64,000 nt of DNA from Psilocybe cubensis (taxonomy: Eukaryota). Shown here piece after piece: positions 24,958 to 56,783 of this stretch. The stretch covers positions 1,736,001 to 1,800,000 of the forward strand of contig CM039008.1 of NCBI GenBank assembly GCA_017499595.2, in the 5' to 3' direction. The position numbers and the translations under genes were made by a program. The notes under the pieces are model-generated. The model was not told the origin of the DNA. It was given only the letters and a program-made list of their open reading frames with translations, and did not search any database. Position 1 is the stretch's first letter, and every line of letters begins with the position of its first letter.

Positions 24958-27118
24958 CTAAGTCGGTTCCAGCAACCTAACTGATGGTCGAATCCACCGC
25001 CAAGGGTCCTTACTATCTGACTTCTCCGTCGTATAGACACCCTGGGAAGTCCCTCCAGTCTTTGGACATGGGCACGTATTGTCTGTATCCCTGTTGAGCG
25101 CTGTTGTTGGACAGAAATGGGTCATTACAAACGTGAAATCAAAGTTTTATGACGAGCTTACCTTTCTCCCTCATATCTTTGAATTCTGATACTCCATCAA
25201 CTTCGAAGTATCTATGGACGAGCAACCGGTCAATTCCCATTCGGGTTTGGGGACATGGATCCACAAGCTTGGTAAAAAAAGTTTTGAACGAGTCCCCATG
25301 GTCATTTAGGAGCACTACTAGTAGTGACTACTTACCCCACAGACAAGCTGTAATTCCAGCTCCAGATCACATTCTTCCACCGGAAAATATTTCTTGAAGT
25401 AAGCAAACCTTTTCTTGCGCTCCCTGTGAAAGTACGCCCACCCTTCTACATTGTCGGACGACAGAGCTTCCAGGAACTACCCATACAAGAAATCAGCAAA
25501 CGCATCAAAACAACAGCCAGACTAGTACATACATCGTAATTACCAACCACCATCTCCCAAAAAATCAAACCGAGTGCCCAGTAATCAACTTGATAGCTGA
25601 ACCTTGGCGGATCTTCAACACTCTCTGGAGCCATATACCCTTCTGTACCTCCATATTTGCGCCCATAGGCGACGGTGGCTTTGAGAGGTCCAACCTTTTT
25701 GGCGATACAGCTAAGACCAAAATCGCCGATTCTAACGTTCCGGCGAGCGTCTAGGAAGATATTGTCAGGCTTGATATCGGCGTGAATTACACCGATACTG
25801 TGGAGTGTGGCAATACCAATAGCCTGTGGAGAACATCACAAAACAAGGTTCATGAGCTACACTTAATACTCGGATGAAAACAAAAGGAGGGCCGAACTCA
25901 CACACTGAGCCATGATTCGACGTATATCGCCCTTCGAAATCTCAGTGGATGTCTTGTATCTACGGTCCAGGACATCTCCTAACGTTGTCGGCATTGCTGG
26001 CTGTATCAACAAGTAACTTCAGCAAAATATTAAGTGCGTACTTCATCAGATTACACACGCACCATAACTAATGCCCGTTCGCTGATACCAAGCATGTCCG
26101 TGAATGTCACAGCAGCTTCGAGCCACATAAGAAACTGGGCGCCTGGTTCCTCTTCCGAAACTGTTGCAATCCGGGCATACACTTCCCTCTCAGTCTCCAT
26201 TTGCACACCTCCATCTCTGGACATTATTACAGGGTTATGCCTTTTGAGAACAAGAACTTTGCCTCCTTCCCCTTCCACAAATTCCAAAGTTGTTGAGCCG
26301 AGCTCCGCTGAACTTGAATGCCAGCCTCCCGATCTTTTGGTCGCAATATTGGCCAAGAAAGTGAACGATAAAACTTTCCCATATACCGACTCGCTATTTC
26401 CTGTGGACCTACGAATCTTTGCTCCGTGAAAAATGTGATGTGGCAAAATGGAACTGTATTCCCTTAGCCGTGGGTCTAAACGATCCAGCAAAATGGCCAT
26501 TCGCTCAGCATCTTGTTCTAAGGGTGCCTCTTCTTCCTCGTCGTTTTCTCTGTCAACCCATACAATCTCTCGGTCTCCTTGATCCGATTCCCGATCTTCT
26601 TCTCCATGCTCTATTACTGCAGAGTCACCTTTTGAGATGTTATTTGTGATCGCTCTGGCAGGAAGTGACTCGCTCTGCTTTTCAGCTCCCGAAACCTCTT
26701 GATTGATCAATTCAGTGGAATCATTGTCTCCTGAGCTTATCAACCGCGTTGGAGAAGTCTCCAACCTTGTTGGCAATCCGCTATGCTTTAATCCTGTTAC
26801 CGCATTTTTTTCTGATTTGGAAACGGTGTCATTTTTGAAGGCAATTCCAAAACCATGGCTTTCGCTATTGTCATCTGCACGTTTCCGGGCCTGTGACGAG
26901 TTTGGTTTGACTGTTGTTGGTCGTACGTCGCCTTCATGTTTGGGATGCCCATAAATTAAGCGCCATGGCGGAATTGTTGGGGAACCCGGGTTACAACACG
27001 ATAGAAATGCATCGACATCAAAACCATCGTACTTTATCCCATGAGCGACAGCCTCATCCTGCACGTTGATGATGCCACTTATGGGTAATGCAACATAGGT
27101 ATCTTGCAAGGGATTCAT
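24958..27118 (-). CDS. Ser/Thr protein kinase, non-RD (HAD) type, copy 1, apparently intact
   Basis: VYGKV, VLVLK, ETEREVY, IHADIKPDNIFLD, IGDFGLS, GGTEGYMAPE, VDYWALG, LVDPCPQTR; spliced through to TAG at 24958-24960. Confidence 0.9.
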
Positions 27119-28233
27119 CTTGATGCGCAATGTTTATCTTTGTGGCTTTATTATAGATGTATGCAAGAGGATTCACTTGTTGACTATTTGCTGCGCGACT
27201 ACAGTGGTCGAAACCGATAGCCAGAGCCTCTGGAAGAGATGGAATGACGATGGCTTAGGAAAGAAGGGGAGGTTGGTCTGACTCAAGCTGTGAAGTGGCC
27301 CATCCACCGTCCTATCATACTTATTTGGAATTTGACCTCGCGACGCAACCTCTGTAATTAAGCGCGTGCCACTGATGCCCTTGATCACGGGACCGCGTTT
27401 TGTGTCTTGCCCTATGAGAGCTGGATTGAAGGATTGGAAATGATCTAACAAAGTAATTTAATAGTTACAGCAATCGCTGCTATGCCCACTGCCCCACTAG
27501 AAAGGGGATAACTTTACCAACTGAGAGCCGCTATGAAATACTCTCTGTTCTATGCTTTGGCACGGGCACCGCAACCTTTCGAGGTCCACATTGTTCTTCA
27601 AGTTTGTGTGACGGATCCTCTTTTTGTTTACTAACGACCTGGGCTTCAGAGAAATGTAGCAATATAATCATGACGGAGTATCGGATATACCACAATTCTT
27701 TGTGTCACAAAACCAAGACCGAAGCATGTCCATCAGATTATGATAGAGACTACAATATTGTAGAGCCGAATACCTTGAGATTGGCACTAATGGAATATCT
27801 TGCACGTCCCAGATAGCTGAAACTTGGCTGAAACAACCTCAACTGAGCCTCAATAGATAAGTGCTATCCTTCTTAGGTTAAGTGCAGTTGGAAGAATGGA
27901 GACCAAGGAAGCTGCCAAGTACTCTTCCCCTCAACTTTAACCCTCGAATCCACAAAAATATGGAAATACAATCTGCAAAACGAGTGGAAGTAGGTGACTA
28001 TTTTAGTATCCTCCAAACTGTGATTTTTTTTCTCCTGCGGGCAAACAAAGGCTGTCAATATTTGCCTGCGACGTACCAAAGTCCATCAGTACACGGACAT
28101 TGAAATCGAAAAACCCCGACCTTTAAATCCGCACCAAACGGATAAATCTCTTGCGGAAATTCCCGGGTCTTGCAGAATGATAGAGGGCGTTGTGATATAA
28201 AGACGTGCTAGTATATCTGCCATGTAAGTTTAT

Positions 28234-29413
28234 ATGATGACTATCATTTCACAAGACCCCATTATCCTTGCAGATCTTGACACTCAGACATTGCTCACGA
28301 GGTATGTTCTCGTTGGATGCAGTTCGGTGGGCGCCTATTTTTGCTCTTTGATAACACCCACTTTGGAGTGCACTGACCGATTGACTGAAAAGGTCATCAT
28401 TTGGGACATCCTTGCCAATCTGAAAAATGATCATACATTGCTGTTCAAGCACAAAATTAAATATCCAACGGTCGTATATGTCCTTTCAAGGTTAGTAATA
28501 TCGTCCATCGTAGTAATCATCTATTGTTTTATCGTGTCCCAATGTCTGTTTTCCTCCCAGGTTATCAACTTTGAGTTATATACTCATAGGCACTATTTTT
28601 GATAGTAAGCTTCCTTCCTTTAAGTTTCAACGATAAGTATGTGGCAGCTAACAGTACCATTTTTCCTCTGTTTTAGCGGCACCACTCGAAGATTGCAACA
28701 AATGGGTTAGGGCATCACATTTATTGATGACAGCAGCCATCTCTTCTACAGCCCTTCTCTTCTACTTCCGTCTGACAGCCATATACCAAGGAAACAAGTA
28801 CATAAGAGTTTTTTTTGCTCTCCTTTGGGTTCTTGTATTCGTCGGTTTTTTTGTTACCTTTCATGGTGTTGAAGCGCAGTCGGCATCTGTTGGCAATAGC
28901 GTGTCTTCAAAATTCTGTATGACTACCGCATTGTCGCGCCATGTGGCCCTCGACTACGTGCTCCCTCTCTTACATGATACCCTCGTCTTCCTTGCGATAT
29001 CTTGGAGGCTTGCGCAGAATTCTGTGCAAAAACCAAGTCTCCATACTGGGTTTCGGGCTGTGATTTTTGGTAATTATATGCCGAAGTTTTCAAGAGCGTT
29101 GTATCAGGATGGTCAGATATACTACCTGTGAGCATTGCTCGTTAAATTGTTTTACAAAAAGTACTCACCGTTTTTAATCAGAACTACCGTCACCACTGGT
29201 CTCCTGGCCTTCGTAATGTTCCTTATACCACACTCACAGGATACATTCAAGGCTACGTTCATCGTGCCAAATATAATGCTTATGAACATAATGGCCTGCT
29301 ACGTCTTCAGAAAGACCAAGTTTGGAGTTTTCCCCGAAACCGGAATCTCTACCGTCAACTATTCTCAGTCTATCCCTCTCACTTTCGAAAGAAATGTAAT
29401 TACATCATCATAA
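28234..29413 (+). CDS. DUF6533-like multi-pass (about 7 TM) membrane protein, copy 1
   Basis: RYVLVG..IWDILANL..D..LL...PTVVYVLSR, LLFYFRLTAIY, HDTLVFLAISWRL, LYQDGQIYYL, NIMACYVFRKTK; 5 exons. Confidence 0.8.
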
Positions 29414-30031
29414 CCCATAATCCTATCATCTATCCCGTGCACTCCGCGAATGCCTGACGATCATGGTTGCCTTCTCACTTTCAAAGTCGAGTCCGTCTAA
29501 AAATAGACGGCTTTTCTTGGTCATTATCGGGGAAACGGAGATCGAGGCTCGAGCAGCGTTGGTTCAGGGAGCAGGAAGCAGGGGTATGATCCTATTTTTG
29601 ATTTTTTGGAGATGGATATCACGGCACACGGTCTCCTCTAGCAGAACAGTCGCAGCACTACAGCGGCATAATTTATCGTTTAACCTCATAATAGTACGTA
29701 CAATGAATACACCTCGATGTCGGACAACTCGATGCTATAGTTTCAAAGTAATTTACCCAGTGAATGACAAGTGCCAGTGCGTCCGAACGTGTTTCCCTCA
29801 ATACCGGCTCTACTTATTCATACATTCGCTCGTCACTGCGACCGTTAAAAATCATGTATTTAAGGATGCCTGACAGCTGAATTTGCAAGGTGCTTTGTGA
29901 TCGGATCGATGCTTCTATTTTATGATTTGTCGACACTCAATATAGGCCTGGCTTCCAGCGAACATTTCGGTTTCCCCTCTTTCTTCATTGCCCTTAGCTA
30001 TTGAGGGTGTGGCCAGGACGCCTTCTCTTAC

Positions 30032-31168
30032 ATGGGAATGATATACGCATCAAACATCACATCTAATAGCCAGCAGATTCTCAACCCCGCCACGCCCACG
30101 GCGTACCTTCGTCCTGACGAGGCATTCCAGGTTGTAATCACAACATATGTCATAGTTGCTTCCTGTGGGGTGAGTCCTACAGTACTACTACAATGTTCAC
30201 GCAATTTCAATATTCGCAGGTTTTCATCTGGGATGTCATCACTAACTTGGGGAACGACTACACGCTGGTGTCAAAATATCCTGTGAGGTTTCCGACGATT
30301 GTATACGTGCTATCCAGGTCCGAGGATTCCTACTTTATACGATGTCAGCCATTTTGACGTACAATAGATTGGCTACGTTTGGATATGTCCTTGCAGCAAC
30401 AATATACCAAAGTATGATGCTCCCTCATTTTATAATCGCCAATTTCGCGGTCCTTAAATGGATTTCTTTCAGCCGCGCCAGTGGGAAACTGCGCTCGGTT
30501 TGAGATGGCGTTGAACGCCTTCAACACACTCGCAATTCCTATCACATCCATCCTTTTCTTCATCCGTGTGAGGGCCATCTATGAAAACGAGAGGTATATC
30601 TCCATCTTCTTTTCGATCATGTGGCTAGCTGTCTTCGCCGGGAGTTTGTCAACAACGTTCGGTGTCACTGGAATATCGATTGGCCCTACCCGCTACTGCA
30701 TGATCAGCAAAATGTCGCCTTACGTCGTCGCTGCCGGGGTGGTTCCCCTCGTGAACGACACCCTTATATTCTTTGCAATATCTTGGCGCTTGACAAAAAA
30801 CTCTCTGCACCATCTGGATTTCCAAGTCGGGTTCCGGGCCATTGTGTTTGGTGACTACATGCCAGTATTCTCGAGGTCGTTGCTGCAGGACGGACAGAAG
30901 TATTACTTGTAAGCATTTTTATTTTTATTTTGCTTTTACGGTCAATTTATCATCCTACGGTCGTGAACGTAGGACAACTGTTTCTTGTGGCCTTGTAGCA
31001 GTAGTTCTGCTCACTGCCAGCACTATTCCTGTTACATATAGAACAATACTGATTGTTCCTAATTGCATTCTCACAAACATTATGGCTTGTGGAGTTTTTA
31101 GGAGGACAAAATTCACACATTTAACAGAGGGTAGTGGGACACCAACCTCTCTTTCATTTCTTGTATAG
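30032..31168 (+). CDS. DUF6533-like multi-pass membrane protein, copy 2 (tandem paralog)
   Basis: Same motifs (IWDV, PTIVYVLSR, FFIRVRAIY, NDTLIFFAISWRL, LLQDGQKYYL, NIMACGVFRRTK) and the same intron positions as copy 1. Confidence 0.8.
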
Positions 31169-31894
31169 CATCTTGTACAATATATCCACGTTGACAAAGG
31201 ACAATCAAGCACCTTGATAGAAATTTCACTGTATGATAACAGATGGCGAACTACATCCTTGAAGACCTTGTCAAAATACCACAGTTAAAGCACACTAAGA
31301 TTGCAATACTTGCAACCAAAAAAAAGCAAACTACAAAATATACCAAGTTGCCTAAAGAAGACATGAATTAAAGACTTGTTTCTGTTTGCTGTATTCAACC
31401 TTACAATTAAATAATTGTGAGATTAAGTATAGCAGCAAAGAGATAAAAGTCCTCAAAAGAAGAGGATCCCCCGACGACACAAGCCGGTAGTGCAGCAGCA
31501 AGGTCATCGCGTCCAAGGGGTGCAAGCAGAGCCCGAGGAGCTGGGGCGGCAAAAATAAGATAACCAAGAATGGAGCCGGTGGCTCCATAATAGTGGTTAA
31601 ACTATTAAGAACAGATACTACACTTGATCTAAGCCAAAAGGCCAGAGTGGTAAGGATTCAAAATGTTCGCACGTCCGTTATATAGTAGCGGGATGTGCAC
31701 GGACCAAGAGCGGGATTTCCTTGCACGTGATGGCCAGAATAGCCCCCGACAGCTGCGGTATTTCCCTTTTAGTATGTTCCACGTTCGCCGCGTCGGCGTT
31801 GAATTAGCGCCCAACTGTTAGTCGATCTTGATCATAACATAAATTGTTATAAACAACCGATTGATCGACCTCTACACTATGTATAATTCCCTGA

Positions 31895-34051
31895 TTACAA
31901 GAAATTATATTTCGTCAAAAAACGTTCGAATTCTTTCCTTCCTATTCCACCATCCGCCGCCCAAGTATTCGCGAGCTTCGGCTTCATATTTGCAGCATTT
32001 TTGCGTATCTCTGTTCCTCTCTCTGCGCGTAAGTCATCAATGACCCGCCGTATTTCAATCCCGAAAGCCTCGCGAGACCCCTTGGCCTGACGTCCATTGC
32101 GTCGTAGAGGTTTTAAACCCGATGCTCCTGTTCTGACTTCAATGAGTTCTATGCCTACTTTGAGGTTTTCACTAATATGTGCGGCGCCATAAGGTTGATC
32201 AGCGTGGAAAGGCCAACACAGCCTATTTATTGAAGTTAGTCCTTACAGGCCGATTATGCATATCAATTCTGAAGTACTTACATAGGAATCCCACTAGCTA
32301 GCGACTCCATTACGCTATTGTGTCCACAATGCGAGATGAACCAACCGGTAGCCTGAGTAAAAATCTCAAGTGGAATGAAGCAAAGCTTGCAGTAGTAACT
32401 ACTTACTGGGTGGTTCAGAATAAACTGTTGAGGGAGCCACTTAGATACAAGACCTATGCCGGACCCTTGGACTTTGTTGATGATTTCTTCCGAAAGGTTA
32501 GCTATGTGAGATGCATAGCAAAGAAGCTGTAGTCGACCATGGTCAATTCTGCTGCTTGTGTCATGTCAAAATGCCTTACAAATGGGATATTCTTTTCAAT
32601 AAAAGCTTCGATTGCTTCTTCGATATAATCTTGCGAGGTGGGCCAAAACACAGTACCAAAAGATAACTGGATCAAGATCCTTGAACTCCGGTCTACGCTC
32701 ACAATGCCAAACATTACTCACGAAGATGACTGAGTTTTCGCCGTGTTCTTTTAGCACTTTGTCGAGGAAATCTCTAGTTTCCTTGGATCCACGGTCGCTT
32801 TCCTCGAGTATGCCATACCCAGAAGGTAGCAAGGGCCCAATGATGTACGCATCTTTATTCCATTCCGACAACCAAGCCTTTAGTCCATCCATGGACTCCT
32901 CTTCAAAGGAATGGGTGGATGTGACCAAAACATCGTCAGCTTCTTTGATACTTCTACATATACCATCACACAATACTGTGGAAAATAGAACAGTGACAGC
33001 TCACCGATGACCAAATTTCACGATGGTAGAAAGAGGGACTTCAACAGGTTGAGGGAGCTAAACCAGAAAGTACATAAATTACAAGCTGAGCCAACTCGGG
33101 AGTCTTTGACAGGAACGAAGGTAACTTTGCGACTTACAATCTGGGGAAACAACTCCCAATCGTACATCTCCACCAGCCCCGGTACTTTAACAATGGTTCC
33201 AATCGAGGTGTCCAGTAGCTTGAAAATTTGTTTAGAGGTTTCACTATTCTTTAAAAATTGTGAAAATAGCATCCTTACAGAATCACCAAGTTCCAAAGGG
33301 GAAACCCCCAAGCGCGCGGCTTCTGTCTTCATTTTGGCACCTAAATCACCTATTCCACCGAAATGCTCGGGGCCCATTGAACGAATCACGTTCGAAACAT
33401 GACCCGTTATCCATGCAATAATTGGTACGGACGTTCCTGATATCGCCCGTGTTACTTGGAGTATCGGATAAGCCATGTACTATGCAGGTATTAAAGTAAA
33501 TACATGTAGGAGTCGAAAAAGAACATTGCATACGTCAATAACCACAACATTGGGGGGTGTAACACCATCAAAGATAGTGCCCGTCACCGCACAGGTAAGC
33601 GCCTTGCCTTGGATAAGAGCAGGGTAATACTCTGATGCATATGCTTGGGCGTGTACCCTGAACAACTCGACAAGTCTTAATTTCTGGTGCTTGATGGAAG
33701 AAAGAATGCTGAAATGAATTTAATAAACATTTGTTTAAGTTGGCTCTGTTTATCTCACCGAACTCGTCGAATAACGCTGTCGGGCACCGCACCGCGAAAT
33801 TCCGCCTCAACCTCAGCTTGAGCGTTCTTGATCAAGTTTGGGGTGAGCAGCAAAGTCACAAGCGCATGTTCGTCCTCCTTGACAATTCGGGCCGCTAGGT
33901 TACAGAAAGATCTGGTATGACCTAGTAAGTAAGAACAAAAAAAAAACCTCGTTATCTATCCAATCTTTGGTTGACCGAAGAAAGCAAGATTACCCCACGC
34001 TGGAATGGAAGAAAACAGAAAGTGAGGGTTTTTCTTATGGGAAGAAGACAT
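31895..34051 (-). CDS. UDP-glycosyltransferase (GT1 family)
   Basis: N-terminal PAW/GHTR with the catalytic His, SFGTVFWP, and a PSPG-like box PQQFILNHP/ATGWFISHCGHNSVMESLASGIP..CWPFHADQ; multi-exon. Confidence 0.92.
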
Positions 34052-35209
34052 TGTGCAACAGTGTAACAGACCTGGAGTGGTGCATGAAAGTGCGCCTTGG
34101 ATTATATAGATTTGGTTACTTTGGCGAGTAAAATAGAAAGCAGGGTTTTGGGGTCTCGTTGCGCAGGATCTGTTCGATATCGAAGTCTGTCTAGAAGAAA
34201 TGACCTTCGGCACACTGAGCTCGGTAGCGAATAGGAGGTGTCGATACAAGGTAACAGAACGCGTTCGATGGTTAATATTCAATCGTCATCGAAAATTTAT
34301 GCGACATCGAATGTGCAAAATATTCACACTACCTGTCTAATGCTATACTTGCTCACGGAAGATACTCTTGCCGCGATCGCTTATAGAGCGTCCCGCATAA
34401 TTTGCATAGCACCATATTTAAAAATGTACTTACAAAGGATGGTCTGCTATGATATGAATAATATCCATCCAATTCAGGTTCATCTTGAGTCATAGTCGTC
34501 GTTAGCTTTGGTGAATTGCTTCTAGGTCCTGATTGTGTAATTTTAAGTCTGCATTAGAGAGTGTGATATTGGTGTCAAATAGGTTTAATTACTACTTGAT
34601 CTCACCATTCACATTGTCCTTGCTCGTTGGCATTGTAAGAAAGTTAGATGGAGCTCACGGGTGCTGATAGTGCCTCTTTTTTTTGCTCCTGTGTCATCCG
34701 CCATCCTCGTCTAGGCAGGTGAAAACCCTCCAAGAAAGATTGCAAATGAAATCCTCAGCACCCGTCAACAACACGTTCAGAAGTACTAAGGTTGGGCACC
34801 GCCTTTTCTTGGGAATGGTGTACGACAAATTAGTTGTATGATTGCTTGTACACGTGCGGCTTTCCTGGACATCATCTGTGTCAGAGTAGAATGTGCCCAT
34901 GATAAGGAACAATTGTGCAAGTTCAGGTTGTGCTCGTCAACGGAAGATCGTGGTGGTTGCCGTCAAAGTTGATAGCCGAGACACGACCCCTCTTGTCACT
35001 CTCTTGATATCAAACAGTCAAACTCCGGACAGCCTTACACTCAAGTTTTGTGGCCAACTCTCTATTTGACTTGTACTCAATATTGAGGTGGCGAACAGAG
35101 CCAAGGAAGAGAGCGCTGAAGATTCACCATGTTATAAGTGGATCGACCTCTTCCACGACACAGAAAATACGACTACAGAGGCACATCCATTCGACGTCGG
35201 AGAGTTATT

Positions 35210-43183
<7,974 letters not shown>

Positions 43184-43863
43184 CGAAACGGCTACCAAAA
43201 TTGATCTTTCTTTTTTAATTTATTTTTCATTGGATGTATATTTAATGGCGCTGTCGATTTTCTTTCGTCTATTTCCATCTTTGTCTTCATATCATACACC
43301 ATTTTTTATTCTATCGCATTTTCATCTTTCAACAATTTATATGCCATGCAAATCTTAAGAAAGGTTTATAGCGTCTGTCGAATAATAGATGATCAGATGA
43401 GTAGCGCTTTCCATCAGTCAAAAAGATTGGGGTTGATCCATGCCCACTCGTCGCCGTTTGACGACTTGTCTGAAATGGTCATGTCGAACCCATTGAGTGC
43501 CTGATTTGTTGGATCGTGACAATTTCTGGCCTTGCCAGTGTTATACTTAGTAGGATGAATTCGGTGAATATATCACCCACAGTGCACACTACAAAAAGGA
43601 TGTTGTCGAAAAAAATCTCCCCATTCTTGAAATTCTTAGCACTGGTCTTTAAATTCTTTTTCGAAGTATTTCTGAAGGAGCAATCCATCGAACCCGATTG
43701 AATCATTGGGAAAAAATCGAGAAGCTGAAGATTAAACCAACCCAGTCATTCATTTTAATCAATTTTAATTCAAATTGTATTCAAAATTATACTACATCTT
43801 CTACAATTATACTACAATACTTAAAGCGATACATTAATCCAAAAGCCGAAATCCCCTGGTATC

Positions 43864-45920
<2,057 letters not shown>

Positions 45921-47236
45921 TGTTGTATATCTGTTCGGCCACAGGTAGTATGGATGGGTGATTGGCCTGTGAAAATGCCACAACTCGATCTTCTATGAAT
46001 TGGTGGGTCGTGCAAGGAAGGGATCAAAATAATATGGCCTGGATGGACGAGTAGTTGTTGAACAACTCAACCTCTTCACCCGTTTTCTTGGGAGTAAAAG
46101 GGATCACCGTGAAGGAGCAATTAGTTATTCAGAAGGGGGCCAATTTTCATTGTTCGACTGCGTTCGATATAGGGAACGTGACTTGGCAATTAACACGATC
46201 GCGTTTTGCACGGGACCGCGTTCCTCTCGTTCTGTTATCTTCTCGACTGTGTTCTGTGTAAATGACTACTCCTCTGTGATTCCAGCCCACGGAGTCTATT
46301 GAATATGAGCTGAATAGGCATTGCAGAATGAACATTGAATTCTAATTTTTATGCGGTGTTACAAGAAGATATGAAAGCTTTTGTCTTATTCGAATGTCGT
46401 AGTCAGATGTTAGCCGGCCTCAATTTCGGAAAATGCAGGATTGATCCATGTATAGAATTCCTTTTGCTTTTTTAAAAAATTCATTTATTGTCCTTTGAGG
46501 TAATTCCTTATATGTTATTACTTTTTTTATTTCTTTTGCTTCACACATGACTACCACAGTACCACTCCATCATACTTCACAATTTGGTGTCCCGGTGTAG
46601 CCTTGCGAGGTTCGAGACGGGAGAATTTCGCTACGAAGTCCAAATGATCTAATTATCAAGGAGACAGAACGTCGTTCTCATACCGTTTCATCTACCTAAA
46701 TGAACTTTCTCTTACGTTCTCCTGTCAGAGCTCGGTCGGTGCATCTTTGTCGGAACATCTTTGAATCATTCACAGATGTTCCACAATCTCAATTAAAACC
46801 TCCGAGAGAAACCTCCAAAATGGAAGTGGAGAATCAGTCGAAAAGAAAACACACTAAATGGGACTGTGGTTGCCTAAATCCAGACATCTCTGTACTGTCA
46901 CTGCAACGATATGACGCACGGCACGGCCCTGTCGCAATCAATAAAAGCTATCTGAGTAGTTGCCTTGTTCAATGTTGTACTGCTTTTCTGCTTAAGAATA
47001 GCAATCCAATGTTTCTGCAAAGCGTAGGCACACCGTGGTTCGGCGAAGATATCCGGCAAATAGAAGTGTGATTCCATACAATGTGCAGCTCATCGTTTGG
47101 CTCAGGAAGGGTGGAAAGATAATGGGGTGACTACATTCCGTAAAAAATTCAGATACTATGTTACTTTGTGACAAAAGATTTAATGTGGTTTTCCGGCTCT
47201 TCTCCATGCATCATATTTAGCTAGAAATTACAACTG

Positions 47237-48792
47237 CTAGGTCACTCGACGTACAAGTAACCGCGAAAATGCGGCAAAGGGTCGAAAAAATAAACGAGGA
47301 ACAAAAAGAATCGCTCTCACCGTCAATCGGAAGAAGTAAACGCCATACGTGCCATATGGAACATGTCTGTTCAGATAGTAAAGAAAACGCAAATAGAGCG
47401 AGGATCGATCATCCCGATAATCTGCCCACTGATTCACAAAATCATCAGGAAGGTCTTTCCACAAATCAGTTTCGCAGTATGCAGGTGGGCGTGGGGCGCG
47501 ATCGGTATACAAGGTTCGCAAACCTGCCGCAGTTGGAAGGATGCCTTCCGCAAAGGAAAGGGCCTCCTTGGCCGTAAATCTTTTGTCCAGCCGAGAAGTC
47601 ACCATCCGATCAATGAGAGGTGCAATAAGTGGCACATCCTTGACTATGTGCTGAACATGAGGTTAGGGAGTAGTTTGTTTGTTATAAATAATTACAGTAC
47701 CTGGAACGTGTCGCTAAACCAAATTCCAAGCAGAGCAACATCATATTTGAATGGGTCGTAATCGACGTGTCCGTGAAGAGTTTCGAAGGGAGGGAAATCT
47801 CCGATTACATCCGCCCCAAGTATACCGAGTCGAGGATTGGGACCGTATCTCTCCTCATCCAACAGGATCGAGAAGTCAAAATCCGATAAGACGCATACCA
47901 AAGCGCCTTGCTGCAGCAGGTGCTTTCTGAATGGATTGATTGGCATGCCTAACAGCCCTGCATTCGAAAAGTGGTTGATCAACATGTTCCTGCTGCATAA
48001 ATCCTAGGAAGCAGAAAGTGAGCCAAAACGTATGAAAGGTGGACATTGCAAACATACGTGATGAAAGATCCTGTTTTCATGAAGAAATGTGAGGGCCTGT
48101 ATAAACCGCTGGGTTAGAATTTCATGGGGATAATGCAGAAGGCAATTACCTTCAGTAGAAATATAATCTGTTGTACACAGACCTCCGGTGTTGGAAACGG
48201 TACCGAGTTCCAAGTGATATCCCACCTTGACAGATGTGTGGTTTAACCGACTATATTAATCAATTCGGTGTAGATATTGCTGACCTTGGCATGACTGCAA
48301 ACCAATGACCCTCGCAAGGTAGAAGATCAAGAATGGGTATTATAGCAGTAAAAGTCTCCCTCTTCTTGAGCTCAGGCCGGCTTGCGAGCAAATGGAGGAT
48401 TTTATCCTCCTCAGAACCTCCTTTAACAAGCTTGATCACCACATGTCTCCCTTCTGTATCCTGCGCAAACATTACGCGTCCCTAATTGGTAAAAATCGGA
48501 ATTGTCAATAGTTGGGTCAGATAAAGAGGGGAAATTCAGAGACAGTATATAGACCCAGTTCATACAAATCGTCGTCACGTTTGTTGTGGTAATCCCCTCC
48601 CATATACGCATACGGGAATGGGTCCTCCGCTTCAAATTCTTTCTTTCGTACATTCAATCTTGGGTGTGGGTTGTATGGAATGGTTGACGTGGCATAGGGA
48701 ACGATACAGGGATCATCGAAGATGGTCAGGCGGTAAAGATGATATCCTCTTTCTGCGAACCACTCTCGCATGGAATCCCAAAACACCAGCAA
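47237..48792 (-). CDS. Agaricomycete-type (AgaK1-like) protein kinase; 5' end uncertain and lies further upstream
   Basis: FAQDTEGRHVVIKLV, WFAVMPR/W, LTFLHENRIFHH/DLCSRNMLIN, LSDFDFS, YDPFKYDVALLG, PLIAPLIDRMVT..KRFTAKEAL. Confidence 0.85.
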
Positions 48793-50267
48793 TTGGTTGG
48801 TGGTGACCGAGTGCCTATCCCCAGGATCAAACCAAATCTACCTTAATAGTTAATACTAATCCGATAGTCATTGTAGGAGCTTTGACTTGCCAAGTTTCCC
48901 ATAACTTACGAACCAGAAGAAAGGGAACAAGCAGAAGAGCTATGAGTGTTATGCAAGCTCGTCGACCGGTTTACCTGTGCTTCCAAGCTCCTAAGAGAGA
49001 AAATCGCTGCTCTGGCAATACGCACGACAACAATAATTCGAACTCCGTTCCGAGCGCCGGCCTTTAAGCTAAAAATGACAACACAAAATTGTAGAATGTG
49101 CGACCGGCGCAATTCCCATCGAATTGTCACAATCCCTGGCAATTTGACGGAAATGTTAAGTTTAAAATTCGCTTGTTTCACATTTTACAAGTTTGTGTTG
49201 TGGATAAAATACGACAGAGGTGTGTAACGGCAAATTGCGGCACATGCCCAGAGTGGCAGGTCATTAACATTACTTATCTATATTTTTATTATAGCTATTT
49301 TCATATCGATAGACCTATCCGCTAAATTTACACGTACACGGATAAAGAATTTTATTGAGCGGAGCATAAAATTTAAAGACGGCAAATTACGGGAACTAGC
49401 AAAATCGTCGATGAGTATTTACAAAAAAAGTCGAGCTACAAGAACTAAAGCAATACCACCACATCAGCAGCATCCTAGAGACACTCCCTTCTCAAACTGA
49501 AAGGCATGTCAGCGCTTTTCTGCAAGATCGTACCATAGATTAAAATAAAATCAACATAGGAGCATTCCTTATGTAACAAGGCTACGCAGAAATTCAAGTC
49601 CGACTGTATGAATATATTTTTACGTTGGGCCTATCGATATGAAAATAGCTGTAAAATGCCAAGATTTACATTTTTGGAACATGTAGAAGGTACTACTTAA
49701 GTTACAGTTACACCGCCGCCAACTCCACAGAAAGATTCCGGCGTATCTCAGAGGTATAGAGATTCACTTTTAAATCGGTCTTCGCTGACAGCGCCCGAAT
49801 CAACAATCTCCGAGATAATCCGCAGTCGTAGATCTACTTACAACGGGGTTGAAGGGATATGACTCGGAGGTTCTGAATTTCGATCATACAACCTCTTTGT
49901 GATTGGTGGTGCGATTACTCTAAAGGGTTATACTAGACAAGATTAGAGCCGATATTACAGGCAAAGGTATGTAGTGCTGCTATCGTGCTTTGATCATCTA
50001 TATTCTCTCAACCCATAAAGAACAACCCTCGTAAATAATCAGACCGATAACTTCATCAGGAGAATCGTGACCGAGTCAAAACCACAATACACTGTAATGC
50101 ACTAACTTGCCAACCGTTTAGTTATATCTAGATTACGCCTTATTTTGTCCTCGTCGGATACCATGGAATTCATATAAAAGTACGACCTATCGTAATGGTC
50201 TTCAGTACCCCATAGTACCTATTCCACAGTCGAAGTTCACATTTCTTTTGCTTTTTGCTACCTCTTA

Positions 50268-50887
50268 ATGGCTTTAAACACTAGTGCTGTCGTCGTCCCC
50301 AACCCACCCCCGGACAGTGACCCTTATTATATCTCAATGAGGCCTTCATACAACATCAACGACCAAACATATCTTCGCGAACGAGAACGTCTCGTAGTGG
50401 TAAAAGAAAGACTCGAGGATTTGAAAATTCGTTGGGACCTTTTTGACGACATCAACAAGATCAAATATGTCCAAGAGTCTACAGCTGTTCGTGTCGTTGA
50501 CCGTCGTTCGAGACTCCATGAATCGGTGGGTCCTCAAGTGATTTGCACCACCATCTCATTACGATTTCCTGATTGCGATTTGCTCTTTTACTCAGCCAAC
50601 AGTCGATACATTGATCCATCGGTACGCGGAGTACCGCGTAGAAACCATTCTGCCTATAGAATGTCTTATGGTCCACCAGGAATCTACGGTTCTTCAGTAC
50701 ATTGTTGCCCACAGTGACCTCGAGGAAGTCAAACCGCTGGAAGATACACGAGATAGGAAGTATAGTGTCGGTGAACATTTGATTTTTTTCAATTATACAC
50801 TGGTTAATTGTTTGTTTTGTAACAGAGTGGGACTGTTTGCTGGCTAAGATCGTCAAAGTATACAGATCAACATCCAGCTTTGGTTAA
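50268..50887 (+). CDS. Small orphan hypothetical protein, 3 exons
   Basis: TATAAAAG about 95 bp upstream; two GT-AG introns join the 50268 and 50611 ORF pieces and a last exon EWDCLLAKIVKVYRSTSSFG*. Confidence 0.55.
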
Positions 50888-51512
50888 AAATAGCCAAGTA
50901 ATAATCACGTCGTCGCAATATTCGACCACAGCGGTACGCAAACATGCAGTCACTATTCCAGCAGCCATTATTTATTGACACTTTTGTTATGATGTCTTGA
51001 CCAGTGGTATAAGCTTGGCATAAATACCGACAATCTCAAGTACACCGTCAATCTTTTGACTAAGTCAACTATGTCAGTCCCGTTTGTCGTTGATAGGTGG
51101 TTGACAGCCAAAGAAATCACTTCCCGGGGCCCGGGCCGTCAGTAGAATTATGGCTGGCTTTCCGTTGGTTGTTGAAATTTCCGGGTCAAAGTGGACAGCG
51201 GGTCTGAGAGTTCGGAGTCGGCCTCAGGAGAATTGTAAAACACATCTAAATTTGAACCATATGATTACATTGTCAATGAGTTTTCCCAGAGAAAGTATTC
51301 CAGGAGAATTTACTGTTGACGTTTACGCAATGGGTTTAAGCATCACGCGTCAGTTCTTCGGGTTAAGTTGAGGCAAAGTGTCGTCAAGCCACGAGGATTT
51401 GACTGAGTTATGGTACTATTGACATGATAGATCGAAGCAAACGTGACTTCGTAATTAACACCGTAACACGACCATCGCGTTTTGCACGGGACCGCGTTCC
51501 GTATATACAGCA

Positions 51513-52061
51513 CACGGCGGGCAAAAGTGCTGACTAGTCAGCCTGGGAGTTGGTCTGACCAGTCACGTGACCACATCGCGACGCGTTCCGTGACGAATCA
51601 ACTGACCAGTCAGGAGAGGTCACACAAATGTTGTCACGCTGGTTAGTATTGGTAAATGAGTTCAGTAACATAAGATTAAATGGCAATTAAATGTTAAACC
51701 ATTGTCTTCCAAAGCACTATCACTGAGGAAAAGCAATGAATAAATTGGATATTTCTCATGTTTGGTTCAAATTTGGTCATTATTCAAATAAATGGACAAT
51801 TGATAGACGTTGTACCAAAATTGTGTCAATGCATGCTAGATATCTTCAACAAGATTCATGAAAGAAGCAAATAATGTAAGTCCGGGGCATAGAAAAGAGA
51901 TCCTCTGTTCTACAATCAATGAGCGGAATTACTGAAACTTAGCAGCGTGACAACATATGTGTGACAGCTACATGACTAGTCAGGTGACTGGTCAGCACCC
52001 TGGTCAGGTGATTGGTCAGACCAACTCCCAGGCTGACTAGTCAGCACTTTTGCCCGCCGTG
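51513..52061. mobile_element. 549-bp MITE with CAC...GTG termini (CACTA/EnSpm-like)
   Basis: 49-bp perfect TIR (61 bp with 2 mismatches) starting CACGGCGGGCAAAAGTGC; 3-bp duplication GCA at 51510-51512 and 52062-52064; repeated subterminal TGACYAGTCA-type motifs. Confidence 0.92.
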
Positions 52062-52230
52062 GCAATGTCTACATTCTATTCTAGCTTTTATTCCTCATTA
52101 TATGCAGATATAAATGCCGCAGTTTGGAATTAGCGGATTGATCGTTCTTTTATCAATGCTCATGATCAACTCACGCGGTCCGTTCCGCGGTGTCTTGTAT
52201 TATATCAGCGGGCACAATTAACATGCAAAG

Positions 52231-53847
52231 CAGTGATGGTCAGATAACTGTCAGCAAAGTCAGAAGCAGTTACGTTCCCATCAGTAACCGTCATGACCAT
52301 GACCATGACCTGACCAACTATACCATAAAAGGTATTTTCTCAGGCATCGGCAAAAGTGACCAAGTCCCAAAATGCCTTTGTTGCCTTTTAAGGAAGGCCA
52401 ATGATTCATGTGACATAATTATGTCACACAAAACATTTGGGTAAAATTTGGAGGCACCCAAAACATTTAGAAGGCATTTGGAGGCTCCAAAAACATTTGT
52501 AGAGCCCAAAAGTTATTACTAAATATTTCACATACTTACACTTATTTCTCAATTATTGGTTTGCCATAGAACTTAGAGTGAATAATTGATCATAAATAAA
52601 AAGAAAAAGAAAAGCTTGAGTTCAACTTGACATGCACTCAAATGATTACCGGCCTTAGAGTGCGCAAAAAATGATTTTTCAATGTAAAAATTTATTCACA
52701 GTATCATCGCACAATGTCAATTTAAGGCAAAGTCCACCGTTTCTGTCTAGCCATCGACAAAGAGCCTCCCAGGTCTGATTACAAATTAAGTCGGAGATTG
52801 AATCAATGTTATGTGTATAATAACTCAAGACATGCCCCGAATTCCTTTCTTTCCTCACTCTCATGTCTCCTGGTTCTGACAACACAATCTTCTGGTGTCC
52901 CATGCACATGACATAGGCCTGAAAGTTAAACTCACAAGGTAAATCAATTATCCCCAACTGCCAGTGCAACCCAACTGACAATTTCTTTTATGTCTTTGCT
53001 CCTCCTTCGACTTTGATACATCTTTCCATCAAGTATAGATTACAGTCTTACGGACATGCATGTTGAATTAATTGTGAGTATATGCGCATCAAATGCGCAT
53101 ACATTTTGCATTTTGCTTACCATGACTCACTGTGACACATCCAGATCCAGATCTCAAATCACACGAGTTATTGTGACCTGGTCACACGGAGTCTCCCAGG
53201 GTCTGGTTGACCATTATCGTCATCTGTACTCGTTTCTATGTACCCTCCATTGTAGTCAATCAAATTTTATTGTGTTAGTATTTCCAAAGTGTGTGATTAT
53301 TGGGAAATGGCTGCTATAAATAAGAATAAACAAGCTGTAGCATTGTGTGAACCTCAAATCTTTTTTGGGTCTCTCAAATGCAACTCAAATGTTGTCCAAA
53401 TGTTTTTGGGTCTCCCAAATTTTACCGAAATGATTTCATTAAATTTAGATTTTGATAAAACATTCATTCTAGTGAAGGATTTGTAGCCTTTCAAAATTGC
53501 GAGTCTCTACTTAGTCGATATAAAAGGCCATTTGCGCCTTGGGGCCTTTGGGCGTCCCCAAATGCCTTACTAAGGCATTTGGGGACTTGGTCACTTTTGC
53601 CGATGGGGGAATGGGACTGGGCTCTTCAGTAGCAAGATAGATTATATAATACAAGCAAACTAAAAAAAATATCAACTGTGATGCCGTGGTTCAATTTTGG
53701 AAAATAGCACTGATGGCACTCAGTCAGCATTGACAGCCGAATGGGTAACGTCATGACCGCTATGAACAGTCACTAACCGTCTCTGACTTTGATGCTAACC
53801 GTAACTTTTATGACCGTCATCCACTGTGGGCTGACCGCCCACCACTG
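52231..53847. mobile_element. Non-autonomous hAT-like element (about 356 bp once the nested insert is removed)
   Basis: CAGTG...CACTG termini, imperfect 13-bp TIR, and an exact 8-bp duplication ATGCAAAG at 52223-52230 and 53848-53855. Confidence 0.8.
52345..53605. mobile_element. 1261-bp non-autonomous TIR element nested in the hAT-like element
   Basis: 34-bp TIR CATCGGCAAAAGTGACCAAGTCCC(A/C)AAATGCCTT with 1 mismatch; inverted subterminal repeats (~52443-52468 and ~53398-53423); GG on both flanks as a possible 2-bp TSD. Confidence 0.88.
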
Positions 53848-54011
53848 ATGCAAAGTCAATCTGCGATATCAGGGCGTTAGGTGATTTTGTTTTTAGGACT
53901 ACGGTTCAGTGAAATCTTGAACGACACTCACCATGGTCGGTTGCCGGCTGCCAGTTTGCCATTGTGTGAGTTACCATGAAGACACACATACTCCATCTCT
54001 CAATACTGTGT

Positions 54012-54720
54012 CACTAGCCTCGCGAGCCAGGCCTTCTGTGAATCTCGTCTCTTTTCTAGATAAGGCAGGTACCGAGTGATATGTTTGTACAAATGTTGTC
54101 TTTGTTTATGTCGTCAAACATTGATCGGAGTGCGAAAAGAGAGAGATTCACAGAAGGCGGATTTGAGGGAATCCTCGTTTTGTGACTCGGACTTAGTGAA
54201 AAAAACGCGATTTGCCTCAACAACAACCTTCCACAACTTAAAAAAAAGTTGTCTTCAGAATCATTTAGATAGGTTTCTTTTATAATAAAATTCATTTTTA
54301 CAAGGTCACGAAAAAAAATTTTTTTGAGAAAAAAATGACTTGTAATTTTAGCCGAAAAATCATATATCATGGCGCAGGTGAACTGCTTCTAAGATTAGAT
54401 GGCAGGTCCGGGCGGTTAATGAACCCAGTCTCTGCAGATGAAACAGACAATGAAAGAGACATACCTGCACATCCCACCTCCATCAAAAGTGAACCTCTGG
54501 ATACCCAGATTGTCCCAAATGCAGTCTCTACATCCTCTGTAGATTCAAATCATGCTTCAGCTTCAGACAGTATGGGCGAGTCTAGCGTGCAGGGTTTGAC
54601 CTTGACATGGATCTTGAGGAAATAGAGGAGGAGTACGATGTTATTGAAGATTCAGAGGATTCAGAATTCGAGGGGGAGGGGGACGGGTAGTGGTCGCAAC
54701 ACTAAGTCCGACGTGACAAA
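54012..54720. mobile_element. Degraded CACTA-terminus relics with internal inverted repeats
   Basis: CACTA at 54012 and 54700, TAGTG at 54194-54198; inverted repeats 54031-54056/54134-54158 and 54178-54198/54700-54720; no TSD found. Confidence 0.45.
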
Positions 54721-55293
54721 GCGTGACTCTGCCAAAACCGAACCGTTTGGCCCAGCCGTTTCTGACGAAACCGAGCGGAGCTCGAAATATGCTGAGTCAG
54801 AAACGACTGGTGTACGAGCCCTACTGTGTCACGGGCGTTACCAGGTACATCATTTGCAAAACCACTCATACGAGATCTCGCAGAACTTGTTGCGTTTTTT
54901 TCCCATACTTTCCGTGGTCTCCATCTGTGTTGAAACCGGGTCTCATGAGAGATTCGCTGCCACCTGCGTCCTGCCTGACTCATATTTAAACTATCGCTGA
55001 AAACCTCTTCCAGTTATACAATTCGGCATTTTCTACACCCAGTTTGCACTCGTCGCAGATGTCAAAAAATGAACCGCATATGGCAAGTCATCTGTTGGAT
55101 GCCGCTGGCACGCAGATATCACCGCTGGTGCGGATCATCACCGAAGCCATCATTTGGAGATCTACACGGCCTAGTTCTACGCCCTATGGTCAAGAAGGCT
55201 TGGTATTTTTACAGTGTTGAAAGGGAAGTATAAAGACACCTGCTCTCGTCATAGTCCTCAGGAAGGCCCCTGCATTTCTTCTTCACTGCAGAG

Positions 55294-56592
55294 ATGTCAA
55301 ACGCTCCTCTTCCCCGGGTCGCCGACCTGTCTTTCGAGTCGTTGTTCTTGAGGTATATTCTGGCTGGGTGTAGTGCCGTGAGCTTCAGAAACTGATTATC
55401 GTTTGTCAATATATTTTAATCGACTCCATGGGCAGGTCATTCTCTGGGACATCCTGAGCAACTTGAGAAGCGAGTTTATACTTCTCGTCCGGCATAGGTT
55501 CAGGGTGGCGACGGGGGTGTATATAATTTCAAGGTCTGCATTATACATCTCAATTATGGCGCTTGCCAACTCCCATCTAAAGCTAATCGTACAATGTATT
55601 ACAAACCAGATTATCAACAATCGCCTTCGTTGTAATGGCCACAATGTACGGGAGTAAGTAGAAAAACCATATCTCCATTGCCCCTACAACCCTCCGATAA
55701 CTAAGTTACTCATCACCGAGCGCTTGTTCCCCATCAGCCGCGCCGATCCAAGCATGCAGCCAATACGTGCTCGCAGTGCACATCCTCATGGCCGGCTCCA
55801 TCGGCACGACCTCCCTCCTCTTCCTCATCCGCGTGCGCGCAATCTACGAAGCAAGCCCGCGCGTCACCGCCTTCTTCGCGCTCAGCTGGCTCGCCGTGCT
55901 CGGCTGCTTCATCTTCACCCTCCAAGGCCTCGAAGCGTACCCCGAGTCCAACCCCTCCGGCACCCTCGTCTACTGCGCAACAGGCAGAATATCGCCCTAC
56001 ATCGCACTCGACTTCGTCATGCCGCTCGTACACGACACCTTGGTCTTCCTCGCTATCTCCTGGCGACTCGCCACCAACACACTCTACAACAACGCAAATC
56101 GCGATAGCATAATTAAACAAGGCGTTCGGGCCATGGTCTTTGGCCATTACATGCCCGCTTTCTCAAGAGCTCTACTCCAGGACGGACAAATATACTATCT
56201 GTAAGTCTTCATTTTCTTCTTTCAATACATTGAAAAGAAAGTACTGCCGAACCTCTCGGTCTTCCTTCTCTTCTTTCAATACATTGAAAAAAGAAAAGGT
56301 ATCGCCGAATTTTTGGGCTTTTGCTGATGCTGAGAATTTTCACTCAAGAACCACCATTACTACCGGACTTCTCGCGTTTGTGATGCTTTTCATAACCAGT
56401 GCCGAAGTGACATGGAAGACAACATTTCTGGTTCCCAATATGATGCTCATGAACATCATGGCTTGCCATGTTTTCAGAAAGACAAAACTAGGTATTTTTA
56501 CTGAAAGTGGAGTGTCCACTATTAACCCTCCTACCCTTCCTATCGCTTTTCACGTTCCAACCGGAGCTAGTAGTCCCTATATACCACGATAA
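55294..56592 (+). CDS. DUF6533-like multi-pass membrane protein, copy 3
   Basis: RYILAGCSA/VILWDILSNL, LLFLIRVRAIY, HDTLVFLAISWRLA, LLQDGQIYYL/TTITTGLLAFVM, NIMACHVFRKTK; same exon structure as copies 1 and 2. Confidence 0.8.
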
Positions 56593-56679: not shown

Positions 56680-56783
56680 TGACCGAGGTAGGGGTCGAAC
56701 CTACAATCTCCTGATTCGGGCTACGGACCCAGAAGAGCACGTACTGATCGTAGTCAGACGCGATGCCATTTCGCCACACGGCC
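56680..56783 (-). tRNA. tRNA-Arg(ACG) with a 32-nt canonical intron
   Basis: GGCCGTG acceptor, TGGCGAAATGG A-box, TCTGA-CT-ACG-A[intron]A-TCAGG anticodon arm, GTAGG-TTCGACC-CCTAC T-arm, T-run Pol III terminator immediately downstream. Confidence 0.93.

Follow-up and report, generated by a model that had tools for sequence, protein, structure and literature searches.

Mushroom-forming fungi encode both DUF6533-type seven-helix proteins and lineage-specific kinases in the hundreds, and almost none of either has a known role. The first ties of DUF6533-type proteins to development and to peptide sensing date from 2024-2026. SNB1 ('snowball') of Coprinopsis cinerea, a DUF6533 seven-helix protein, is required for fruiting-body patterning (PMC10949477), and Gpe1 of Ustilago maydis is a peptide receptor with many DUF6533 structural relatives, in a basidiomycete family of G protein-coupled receptors (GPCRs) (PMC13652807). 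The relatives of Gpe1 have in common a conserved Arg towards the inner end of helix 3 and, in all but Gpe1 itself, a DG pair at the start of helix 6; the parts of that report available to us describe no kinase partner (PMC13652807). On the kinase side, FunK1 and AgaK1 are Agaricomycete-expanded kinases placed in the 'Other' group of the Coprinopsis kinome (bioRxiv 10.1101/349894, PMC4704728). Here we analyse a locus of Psilocybe cubensis in which a kinase gene and a DUF6533-like membrane-protein gene stand head to head twice. The window, that is, the whole stretch analysed, comprises 64,000 nucleotides (positions 1,736,001 to 1,800,000 of the forward strand of contig CM039008.1, assembly GCA_017499595.2), and all coordinates below refer to it. 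An earlier note, made from the letters of the window, had proposed a co-regulated unit of sensor and kinase, duplicated once and decaying in its second copy. Our analysis indicates that the repeat probably stems from a single old segmental duplication, about 4.5 kb long, which carried two chance neighbours, for which no functional link is needed.

The gene models were built by hand from the sequence, which is fungal DNA with short GT-AG introns, and were checked with translation and splice-site print-outs. Pair 1 consists of kin1 on the minus strand (24958..27118; six exons, 27118-26063, 26000-25902, 25823-25533, 25476-25336, 25267-25162 and 25100-24958; 611 aa, intact) and mem1 on the plus strand (28234..29413; five exons, 28234-28326, 28393-28490, 28561-28604, 28677-29127 and 29182-29413; 305 aa). 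Pair 2 consists of kin2 on the minus strand (43864..45920; six exons, 45920-44895, 44836-44750, 44681-44435, 44363-44232, 44166-44058 and 43994-43864) and mem3 on the plus strand (55294..56592; five exons, 55294-55377, 55436-55533, 55610-55653, 55738-56200 and 56349-56592; 310 aa). Order and orientation are identical in the two pairs, as the earlier note had described them, and the start codons of kin1 and mem1 confirm exactly the divergent spacer of 1115 bp that it had given (27119..28233, start codon to start codon); the spacer between the start codons of kin2 and mem3 is 9373 bp. A third membrane-protein gene, mem2 (30032..31168, plus strand; five exons, 30032-30169, 30220-30317, 30368-30411, 30473-30908 and 30973-31168; 303 aa), is a tandem copy behind mem1 and does not adjoin mem3.

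Public proteins agree with these models where they exist. Exon 1 of kin1 is 100% identical to the P. cubensis protein P0002, and the mem2 model is 100% identical, from residue 3 on, to the P. cubensis protein P0012, which validates the exon layout common to mem1 and mem3. Exons of 98 and 44 nt with the same phases occur in mem1, mem2 and mem3. The introns of mem1 are all GT-AG and its frame is open across the five exons, parallel to the confirmed mem2 model. Among public proteins of at least 262 aa mem1 has no full-length counterpart, its sole match being a metagenome protein with 45% identity, and the gene seems to be unannotated in public protein sets. mem3 is an intact, open gene that is 93% identical over 230 residues to a partial public P. 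cubensis model (P0018) and 68% identical to its orthologue in Psilocybe cyanescens, P0015. Its fourth intron (56201-56348) measures 148 nt, compared with 54 nt in mem1, and by eye contains a tandem duplication of about 45 nt.

When the left and right parts of the window are compared by tblastx, only the kinase and the receptor are found to be duplicated, in colinear order, and no flanking genes are common to the two blocks. The spliced receptors are 50.7% identical between mem1 and mem3, 46.4% between mem1 and mem2, and 42.8% between mem2 and mem3. In a tree of 46 family members, they group with proteins of P. cyanescens as ((mem2, second half of P0011), ((mem1, first half of P0011), (mem3, P0015))), with support of 99 in the Shimodaira-Hasegawa-like approximate likelihood ratio test (SH-aLRT) for this six-row clade and 99 for the four-row mem1/mem3 clade within it. 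The P. cyanescens receptors are PPQ94179.1, a mem1-like plus mem2-like tandem, and PPQ88824.1, which is mem3-like. Since the halves of P0011 pair with mem1 and mem2, the tandem arrangement of these two genes is present in P. cyanescens too, and since mem1 and mem3 each have an orthologue of their own there, their split is older than the separation of the two species. The duplication therefore belongs to the Psilocybe lineage and predates the split of P. cubensis from P. cyanescens, and it was preceded by the earlier tandem duplication that gave mem2. As to the kinases, kin1 and kin2 are mutual best matches (218 bits, 34% identity over 443 columns), the next paralogue reaching 196 bits.

One old segmental duplication explains the repeat because mem1 and mem3 are sisters, each with a P. 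cyanescens orthologue, and the simplest history is a single duplication of a kinase-plus-receptor block after which one kinase decayed. Two observations of the earlier note hold up in this light: that the third receptor copy is closer to the first than to the second, which both the identities and the tree bear out, and that the unit was duplicated once, for which the colinearity of kinase and receptor alone, the sisterhood of mem1 and mem3, and the mutual best matches and common HAD motif of the kinases all speak. Its view that the second unit is decaying applies to kin2, which is broken, but not to mem3.

We also looked at the surroundings of receptor relatives in other genomes. Searched with the receptor profile, metagenome contigs gave 255 matching stretches, 74 of which encode relatives; these represent 69 distinct loci with 453,608 bases in total. 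The loci hold 89 receptor-like copies, 56 of them distinct at 97% identity, and 32 distinct copies have at least 3.1 kb of upstream sequence, which is enough to reveal a kinase catalytic exon in the kin1-mem1 geometry. With tblastn, the kinase domain of kin1 gave no match to the 69 fungal loci at E ≤ 1e-3 (nothing above chance level, with a best E of 2.4, in a search extended to E ≤ 50), and the control on the window worked. A hidden Markov model (HMM) of the kinase family matched none of the 9,636 six-frame open reading frames (ORFs) of the loci; in the window, the same model recovered 12 ORFs, all from kin1 and kin2. More than one receptor match is present in 18 of the 69 loci, mostly in tandem and in the same direction. 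These contig sequences show the receptor family as one that normally sits in tandem arrays without kinases. The pairing that the earlier note had proposed to look for elsewhere does not recur here beyond the one duplication.

Two very large families can also be expected to meet by chance. DUF6533 is reported in 187 of 12,133 genes of Phlebia radiata, and 306 expressed kinases are reported for C. cinerea. Taking the first as the DUF6533 count and the second as the kinase count, a rough cross-species estimate is about 9 neighbouring kinase/DUF6533 pairs per genome, about 2 of them head to head.

The receptors were placed by profile. Word-indexed protein searches with single exons gave one match each, and a profile search was needed. 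A profile built from exon 4 of mem1, mem2, mem3 and one metagenome relative was searched against 1.84 billion representatives; 1619 proteins matched at E ≤ 1e-3, of which 232 reached E ≤ 1e-30. Pfam was then run on the relatives of at least 279 aa, 84 out of 150 listed. A DUF6533 match at E ≤ 1e-3 is present in 30 of these long relatives, and in 12 the score is at least the 24.1 bits of the gathering threshold. Pfam found a polysaccharide deacetylase domain in one of the 84 and a fused kinase domain in none. mem2 (P0012), which bears the UniRef name 'DUF6533 domain-containing protein', scores 24.2 bits against the DUF6533 model PF20151, just above the gathering score of 24.1. Exon 2 of mem3 alone (32 aa) scores 14.5 bits (E 0.039) and exon 2 of mem1 alone has no match to PF20151. 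Homology of mem1 and mem3 to bona fide members is given by the 99-supported clade that they share with the DUF6533-named mem2. On these scores, 'DUF6533-like', the label used in the earlier note, is a fair one for what is a divergent branch. Its remark that no function has been established for such proteins no longer holds, since functions of SNB1 and of Gpe1 relatives have been published.

The AlphaFold model of mem2, made with 59 aligned relatives, has a predicted local distance difference test (pLDDT) score of 91.5 and a predicted template modelling (pTM) score of 0.86. Seven long helices make up the model, and a beta hairpin separates the fourth from the fifth. A Foldseek search of the PDB with this model gave 31 matches at E ≤ 0.001, the best being 8iy5_R (E 1.6e-4, template modelling (TM) score 0.51), and all 50 of the rows listed are GPCRs, mostly class A peptide receptors. 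The predicted fold of the mem proteins, tested on mem2 alone, is GPCR-like, of the rhodopsin-like seven-helix type. R31 and Q143-D144-G145-Q146 (mem1 exon 4 numbering) are invariant in mem1, mem2, mem3 and P0001; R123, nearly invariant across the 59 relatives, lies in the helix 98-127 of the mem2 model, and the DG pair lies in the helix 223-251. The Arg and DG of mem1-mem3 appear to be the motifs of the Gpe1 family, an equivalence to the Gpe1 positions that we infer without an alignment. The C-terminal tails of the three receptors contain 10 Ser/Thr among 35 residues, 8 among 23 and 9 among 39.

In seven helices, restriction to basidiomycetes, a DUF6533-type helix 1-2 region, and the Arg and DG motifs, mem1-mem3 resemble the Gpe1 family as far as the latter is described in the excerpts at hand. 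They differ in that their PF20151 match is borderline, and they are known here from sequence and the mem2 model. With SNB1 they share the nature of a DUF6533-type seven-helix membrane protein of a mushroom-forming fungus. The comparison with SNB1 is by description: SNB1 is characterised, in the part of its report consulted, as highly conserved, whereas mem1-mem3 belong to a fast-evolving, tandemly expanding branch. As for the metagenome relatives, they are often found in same-strand tandem arrays with a spacing of 2-3.5 kb (for example loci L059, 8207-15837, and L003, 4506-9608), and some of their copies are split into shifted frames and look like pseudogenes.

kin1 (P0002) matches the kinase family Pkinase (PF00069) with 112 bits, the cut-off being 31.7. 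It retains the strand-3 Lys, the helix-C Glu, the catalytic Asp, DFG and APE, and its catalytic loop reads HAD, which makes it a non-RD kinase, with no Arg in front of the catalytic Asp. Its first 280 or so residues form an acidic, disordered N-terminal half that has no family match in Pfam. The public model, P0002 (571 aa), runs into the last intron and terminates early; a sixth exon (24958-25162 region) restores a C-terminal motif, (W/Y)xW(I/V)xP, that follows an acidic Ser-rich stretch and is common to kin1, kin2 and six paralogues. Against solved structures, RSK, phosphorylase kinase (PhK), Chk1, MRCK and GRK1 score about equally (E 4e-16 to 1e-13), and because kin1 resembles several kinase groups to about the same degree, its NCBI name, 'CDC5-like', is generic. 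A Polo/CDC5 identity was rejected: Pfam finds kinase-type families only on P0002 and no Polo-box domains, and PLK1 ranks last among the 60 solved matches listed.

A search of named proteins with the kinase domain of kin1 listed eight proteins, of which one is kin1, six are paralogues from P. cubensis and one comes from Panaeolus. An orthologue in P. cyanescens was not among them, a weak negative since the search is word-based and length-limited. The RD position varies in this family, with HND or HSD in the six P. cubensis paralogues and HRD in the Panaeolus relative, and HAD is confined to kin1 and kin2 among the relatives compared. The paralogues P0003-P0008 form a tight clade with short branches and four of them are recorded on one other P. 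cubensis contig of 2.3 Mb, which points to a recent local kinase expansion elsewhere in the genome.

Several known kinase systems invite comparison with kin1. Its family is lineage-specific and multi-copy, with a recent tandem-like expansion, and is in this respect like FunK1 and AgaK1, the latter being compared by description from partial sources. It differs from FunK1 in that kin1 matches PF00069 and has no Pfam match to Pkinase_fungal (PF17667), the model reported for FunK1. A Ser/Thr kinase gene beside a GPCR-like gene with a Ser/Thr-rich tail also recalls the animal GPCR kinases, and both GRK1 and GRK6 are among the solved relatives of kin1. However, GRK1 and GRK6 score no better against kin1 than RSK, Chk1, PhK and MRCK do, and neither an RGS-homology domain nor another GRK feature was found in kin1 with Pfam. 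GRK genes are not known to be linked to receptor genes. With the plant non-RD receptor kinases EFR, XA21 and FLS2, kin1 shares the missing Arg before the catalytic Asp; those are single-chain receptor kinases of the RLK/Pelle group, whereas kin1 is a separate soluble protein of another group, and the loss of the Arg varies within the kin1 family (HAD, HND, HSD and HRD).

kin2 is a paralogue of kin1 with the same six-exon layout. HAD and DFG are kept and APE is missing. The lesion, near 44498, combines a 1-base shift of the frame with the loss of about 15 codons, APE among them, and a stop follows. A single base lies between the conserved 'GTE' and 'YQVDYW' in kin2; the corresponding stretch spans about 13-15 codons, APE included, in kin1 and in six of the seven relatives retrieved, and is longer and divergent in the remaining one, P0009. 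Once the break is read as X, the remaining kin2 exons are all open, so that there is one disabling lesion. The first intron requires a GC donor (GC-AG). Because of the frame shift and the loss of the APE-bearing codons, kin2 is likely a pseudogene.

Upstream of kin1 lies a bipartite element (27354..27399, 236-281 nt from the kin1 start) that consists of GTAATTAA, 24 nt, and then the 14-mer CACGGGACCGCGTT. The 14-mer (27386-27399) is 268-281 nt from the start of kin1 and recurs 289-302 nt from the start of kin2. At up to two mismatches it has three matches in the window, all at kinase-upstream or repeat positions, when 0.21 are expected by chance; three matches were reached in 0 of 100 shuffles. 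A G(T/C)AATTAA box precedes it by 24 nt at kin1 and by 15 and 26 nt in the two repeats described below. Near the receptor relatives of other fungi (69 loci, 453 kb), the search for the element gave one match with two mismatches. The possibility that the 14-mer is a small upstream coding exon was rejected, as there is no in-frame start codon and only about four codons are shared. We read the bipartite element as a putative cis-element of this kinase lineage.

In the second spacer the element occurs as two direct repeats, copy A on the kin2 side (46174..46224, about 51 nt; GCAATTAA, 15 nt, then the 14-mer) and copy B on the mem3 side (51439..51500, about 62 nt; GTAATTAA, 26 nt, then the 14-mer). 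They differ by an 11-nt indel, and copy B is nearer in form than copy A to the element upstream of kin1. The direct repeats are copies of a promoter piece, unlike a typical target-site duplication. The segment of 5.2 kb between them (46225..51438) begins with TC, which brings a Helitron to mind, and has no recognisable coding domain; it lacks long terminal repeats and has no further copy in the window. Over the whole second spacer, Pfam found nothing on 13 ORFs of at least 90 aa or on 35 ORFs of 55-89 aa, and no transposase. Beyond copy B there are two insertions. The first, of 549 bp (51513..52061), resembles a foldback element or miniature inverted-repeat transposable element (MITE), with inverted arms of 61 nt at 97% (to about 140 nt at 80%), and is flanked by a 3-bp GCA duplication. 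The second, of 1261 bp (52345..53605), has 37-nt terminal inverted repeats at 95%; a convincing flanking duplication was not found, only GG. The earlier note had reported direct repeats and two transposon insertions bounded by target-site duplications, leaving a spacer of about 1.9 kb once they were removed. The repeats are real and longer than it had them; both inverted-repeat elements are real, but a convincing flanking duplication was seen at the first alone; and the spacer without the 5.2-kb segment and the two elements comes to about 2.3 kb on recomputation.

Taken together, these observations can be accommodated in one history. The first gene of the block is a fast-evolving Agaricomycete-type Ser/Thr kinase with HAD; the second, which diverges from it, encodes a GPCR-like receptor with seven helices that belongs to the DUF6533 group. 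In copy 1 both genes stayed intact over a spacer of 1.1 kb. In copy 2 the spacer gained the 5.2-kb segment and the two small inverted-repeat elements, and the kinase lost the end of its activation segment by a frame-shifting deletion, with the receptor left intact. The repeated pairing would then go back to one ancestral event that made neighbours of members of two very large gene families; each receptor would most likely be a membrane sensor that signals alone, like its characterised relatives, and kin1 most likely an ordinary soluble kinase that is probably active. Hitch-hiking of this kind is the best reading because the repeat is one event, mem3 has stayed intact next to a kinase that is dead, and no kinase accompanies mem2. 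Several observations weigh against it: (i) The spacers outside the bipartite element have diverged so that they do not align, and the element is kept upstream of both kinases. (ii) In copy 2 the element stands on both flanks of the 5.2-kb segment. (iii) Adjacency and orientation have been kept in both copies since before the Psilocybe species split. (iv) The 69 comparison loci are from other fungi, outside the Psilocybe clade, and a module specific to that lineage would therefore escape them. (v) An intact kin1 could serve mem3 in trans. (vi) The Ser/Thr-rich receptor tails are, by their composition, plausible kinase substrates. (vii) The sisterhood of kin1 and kin2 is unsupported (42/1) in a nine-row tree in which both have long branches.

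Several of these observations would fit a lineage-specific signalling module, which we nevertheless consider unlikely. The receptor would sense a ligand and the neighbouring non-RD kinase would be its dedicated partner, either phosphorylating the Ser/Thr-rich tail, like animal GPCR kinases, or relaying the signal, like plant receptor-like cytoplasmic kinases; kin2 would have become redundant after the duplication and decayed, and kin1 would now serve both receptors. A head-to-head layout that is kept in both copies and spans 1.1 kb in copy 1, a receptor fold that is GPCR-like in the mem2 model, the motifs of Gpe1 relatives (Arg in helix 3 and DG in helix 6), tails rich in Ser/Thr, an intact kin1 with Lys, Glu, catalytic Asp, DFG and APE, and a conserved upstream promoter element are all consistent with such a module. 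However, the repeat is a single event, with no independent recurrence, and so is not independent evidence for a functional unit. Kinases are present in 0 of 69 receptor-relative loci and fused forms in 0 of 84 long family members, and the word-based search of named proteins found no kinase orthologue in P. cyanescens, though both receptor orthologues exist there. mem2, a sister lineage, does without a kinase of its own, and kin1 is no closer to GPCR kinases than to others (E about 2e-14 for GRK1 and 4e-16 for RSK1). Of the sensor-plus-kinase unit put forward in the earlier note, the sensor part is strengthened by the GPCR-like fold, but the functional unit is not supported, given 0 of 69 loci and a mem3 that lies beside a dead kinase. 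Functional coupling of kinase and receptor is likewise not supported by any of the analyses made here.

Linkage could instead be kept for joint expression, with the two genes co-regulated from a shared bidirectional promoter, for example by a factor acting on the TAATTA-plus-14-mer element, and with products that do not touch. We regard this as improbable to the same degree as the signalling module. In its favour, the divergent spacer of copy 1 is short, the 14-mer lies at matching distances from the two kinase starts (268-281 and 289-302 nt), and the element is doubled around the 5.2-kb segment in copy 2. Yet the element is about 835 nt from the start of mem1 and about 3.8 kb from that of mem3, and so looks like a kinase element; it is absent from the 69 receptor loci of other fungi (one match with two mismatches in 453 kb), and mem3 is intact though it lies 9.4 kb from kin2. 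Slightly less probable again is a reading that combines the two, a two-gene sensor of Psilocybe in which a class-A-like DUF6533 GPCR would be coupled to its own non-RD kinase under a shared promoter with the TAATTA-plus-14-mer element, the kinase acting on the tail or relaying the signal. If true, this would give fungi an equivalent of GPCR kinases or of the plant pairs of receptor and cytoplasmic kinase. We give very little credence to an independent origin of the two pairs, which would point to selection for the pairing itself. In its favour, divergence is greater between the kinases (34% identity) than between the receptors (51%), and the sisterhood of kin1 and kin2 lacks tree support; against it, the order, orientation and exon layout of both genes are alike in the two pairs, mem3 is the sister of mem1, kin1 and kin2 are each other's best match with HAD in common, and the faster divergence of kin2 is explained by its pseudogene status. 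A single block duplication remains the probable origin of the repeat.

The two pairs are separated by genes of other kinds: a U2 small nuclear RNA (snRNA) gene, a glycosyltransferase-like gene and a large BEACH-domain gene. The U2 spliceosomal snRNA (31465-31653, minus strand) is full-length, matches Rfam RF00004 with 114.9 bits and lies between mem2 and the glycosyltransferase-like gene. The large gene (35138-43064, plus strand) encodes, by Pfam, Armadillo-like repeats, a DUF4704 solenoid, a BEACH domain and neurobeachin-type WD40 repeats. On the far side of pair 2, 88 bp past the stop of mem3, is a tRNA gene of 104 nt (56680-56783, minus strand; 47.7 bits in Rfam), which probably bears an intron; ARAGORN found zero tRNA genes in the whole window despite this Rfam match.

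A dedicated kinase partner, if true, would be a first handle on signalling by DUF6533-type receptors. The evidence indicates instead that one segmental duplication left the repeated pairing behind, and that the genes are added members of known families inside an ordinary duplicated block. What is gained is a set of corrected gene models, with a kin1 that is longer than its public version, a mem1 that is seemingly unannotated and a kin2 that is likely a pseudogene, as well as the placement of the receptors in a GPCR-like family. In addition, the receptor family is seen to grow by tandem arrays without kinases, and a conserved putative promoter element of the kinase lineage is now testable.

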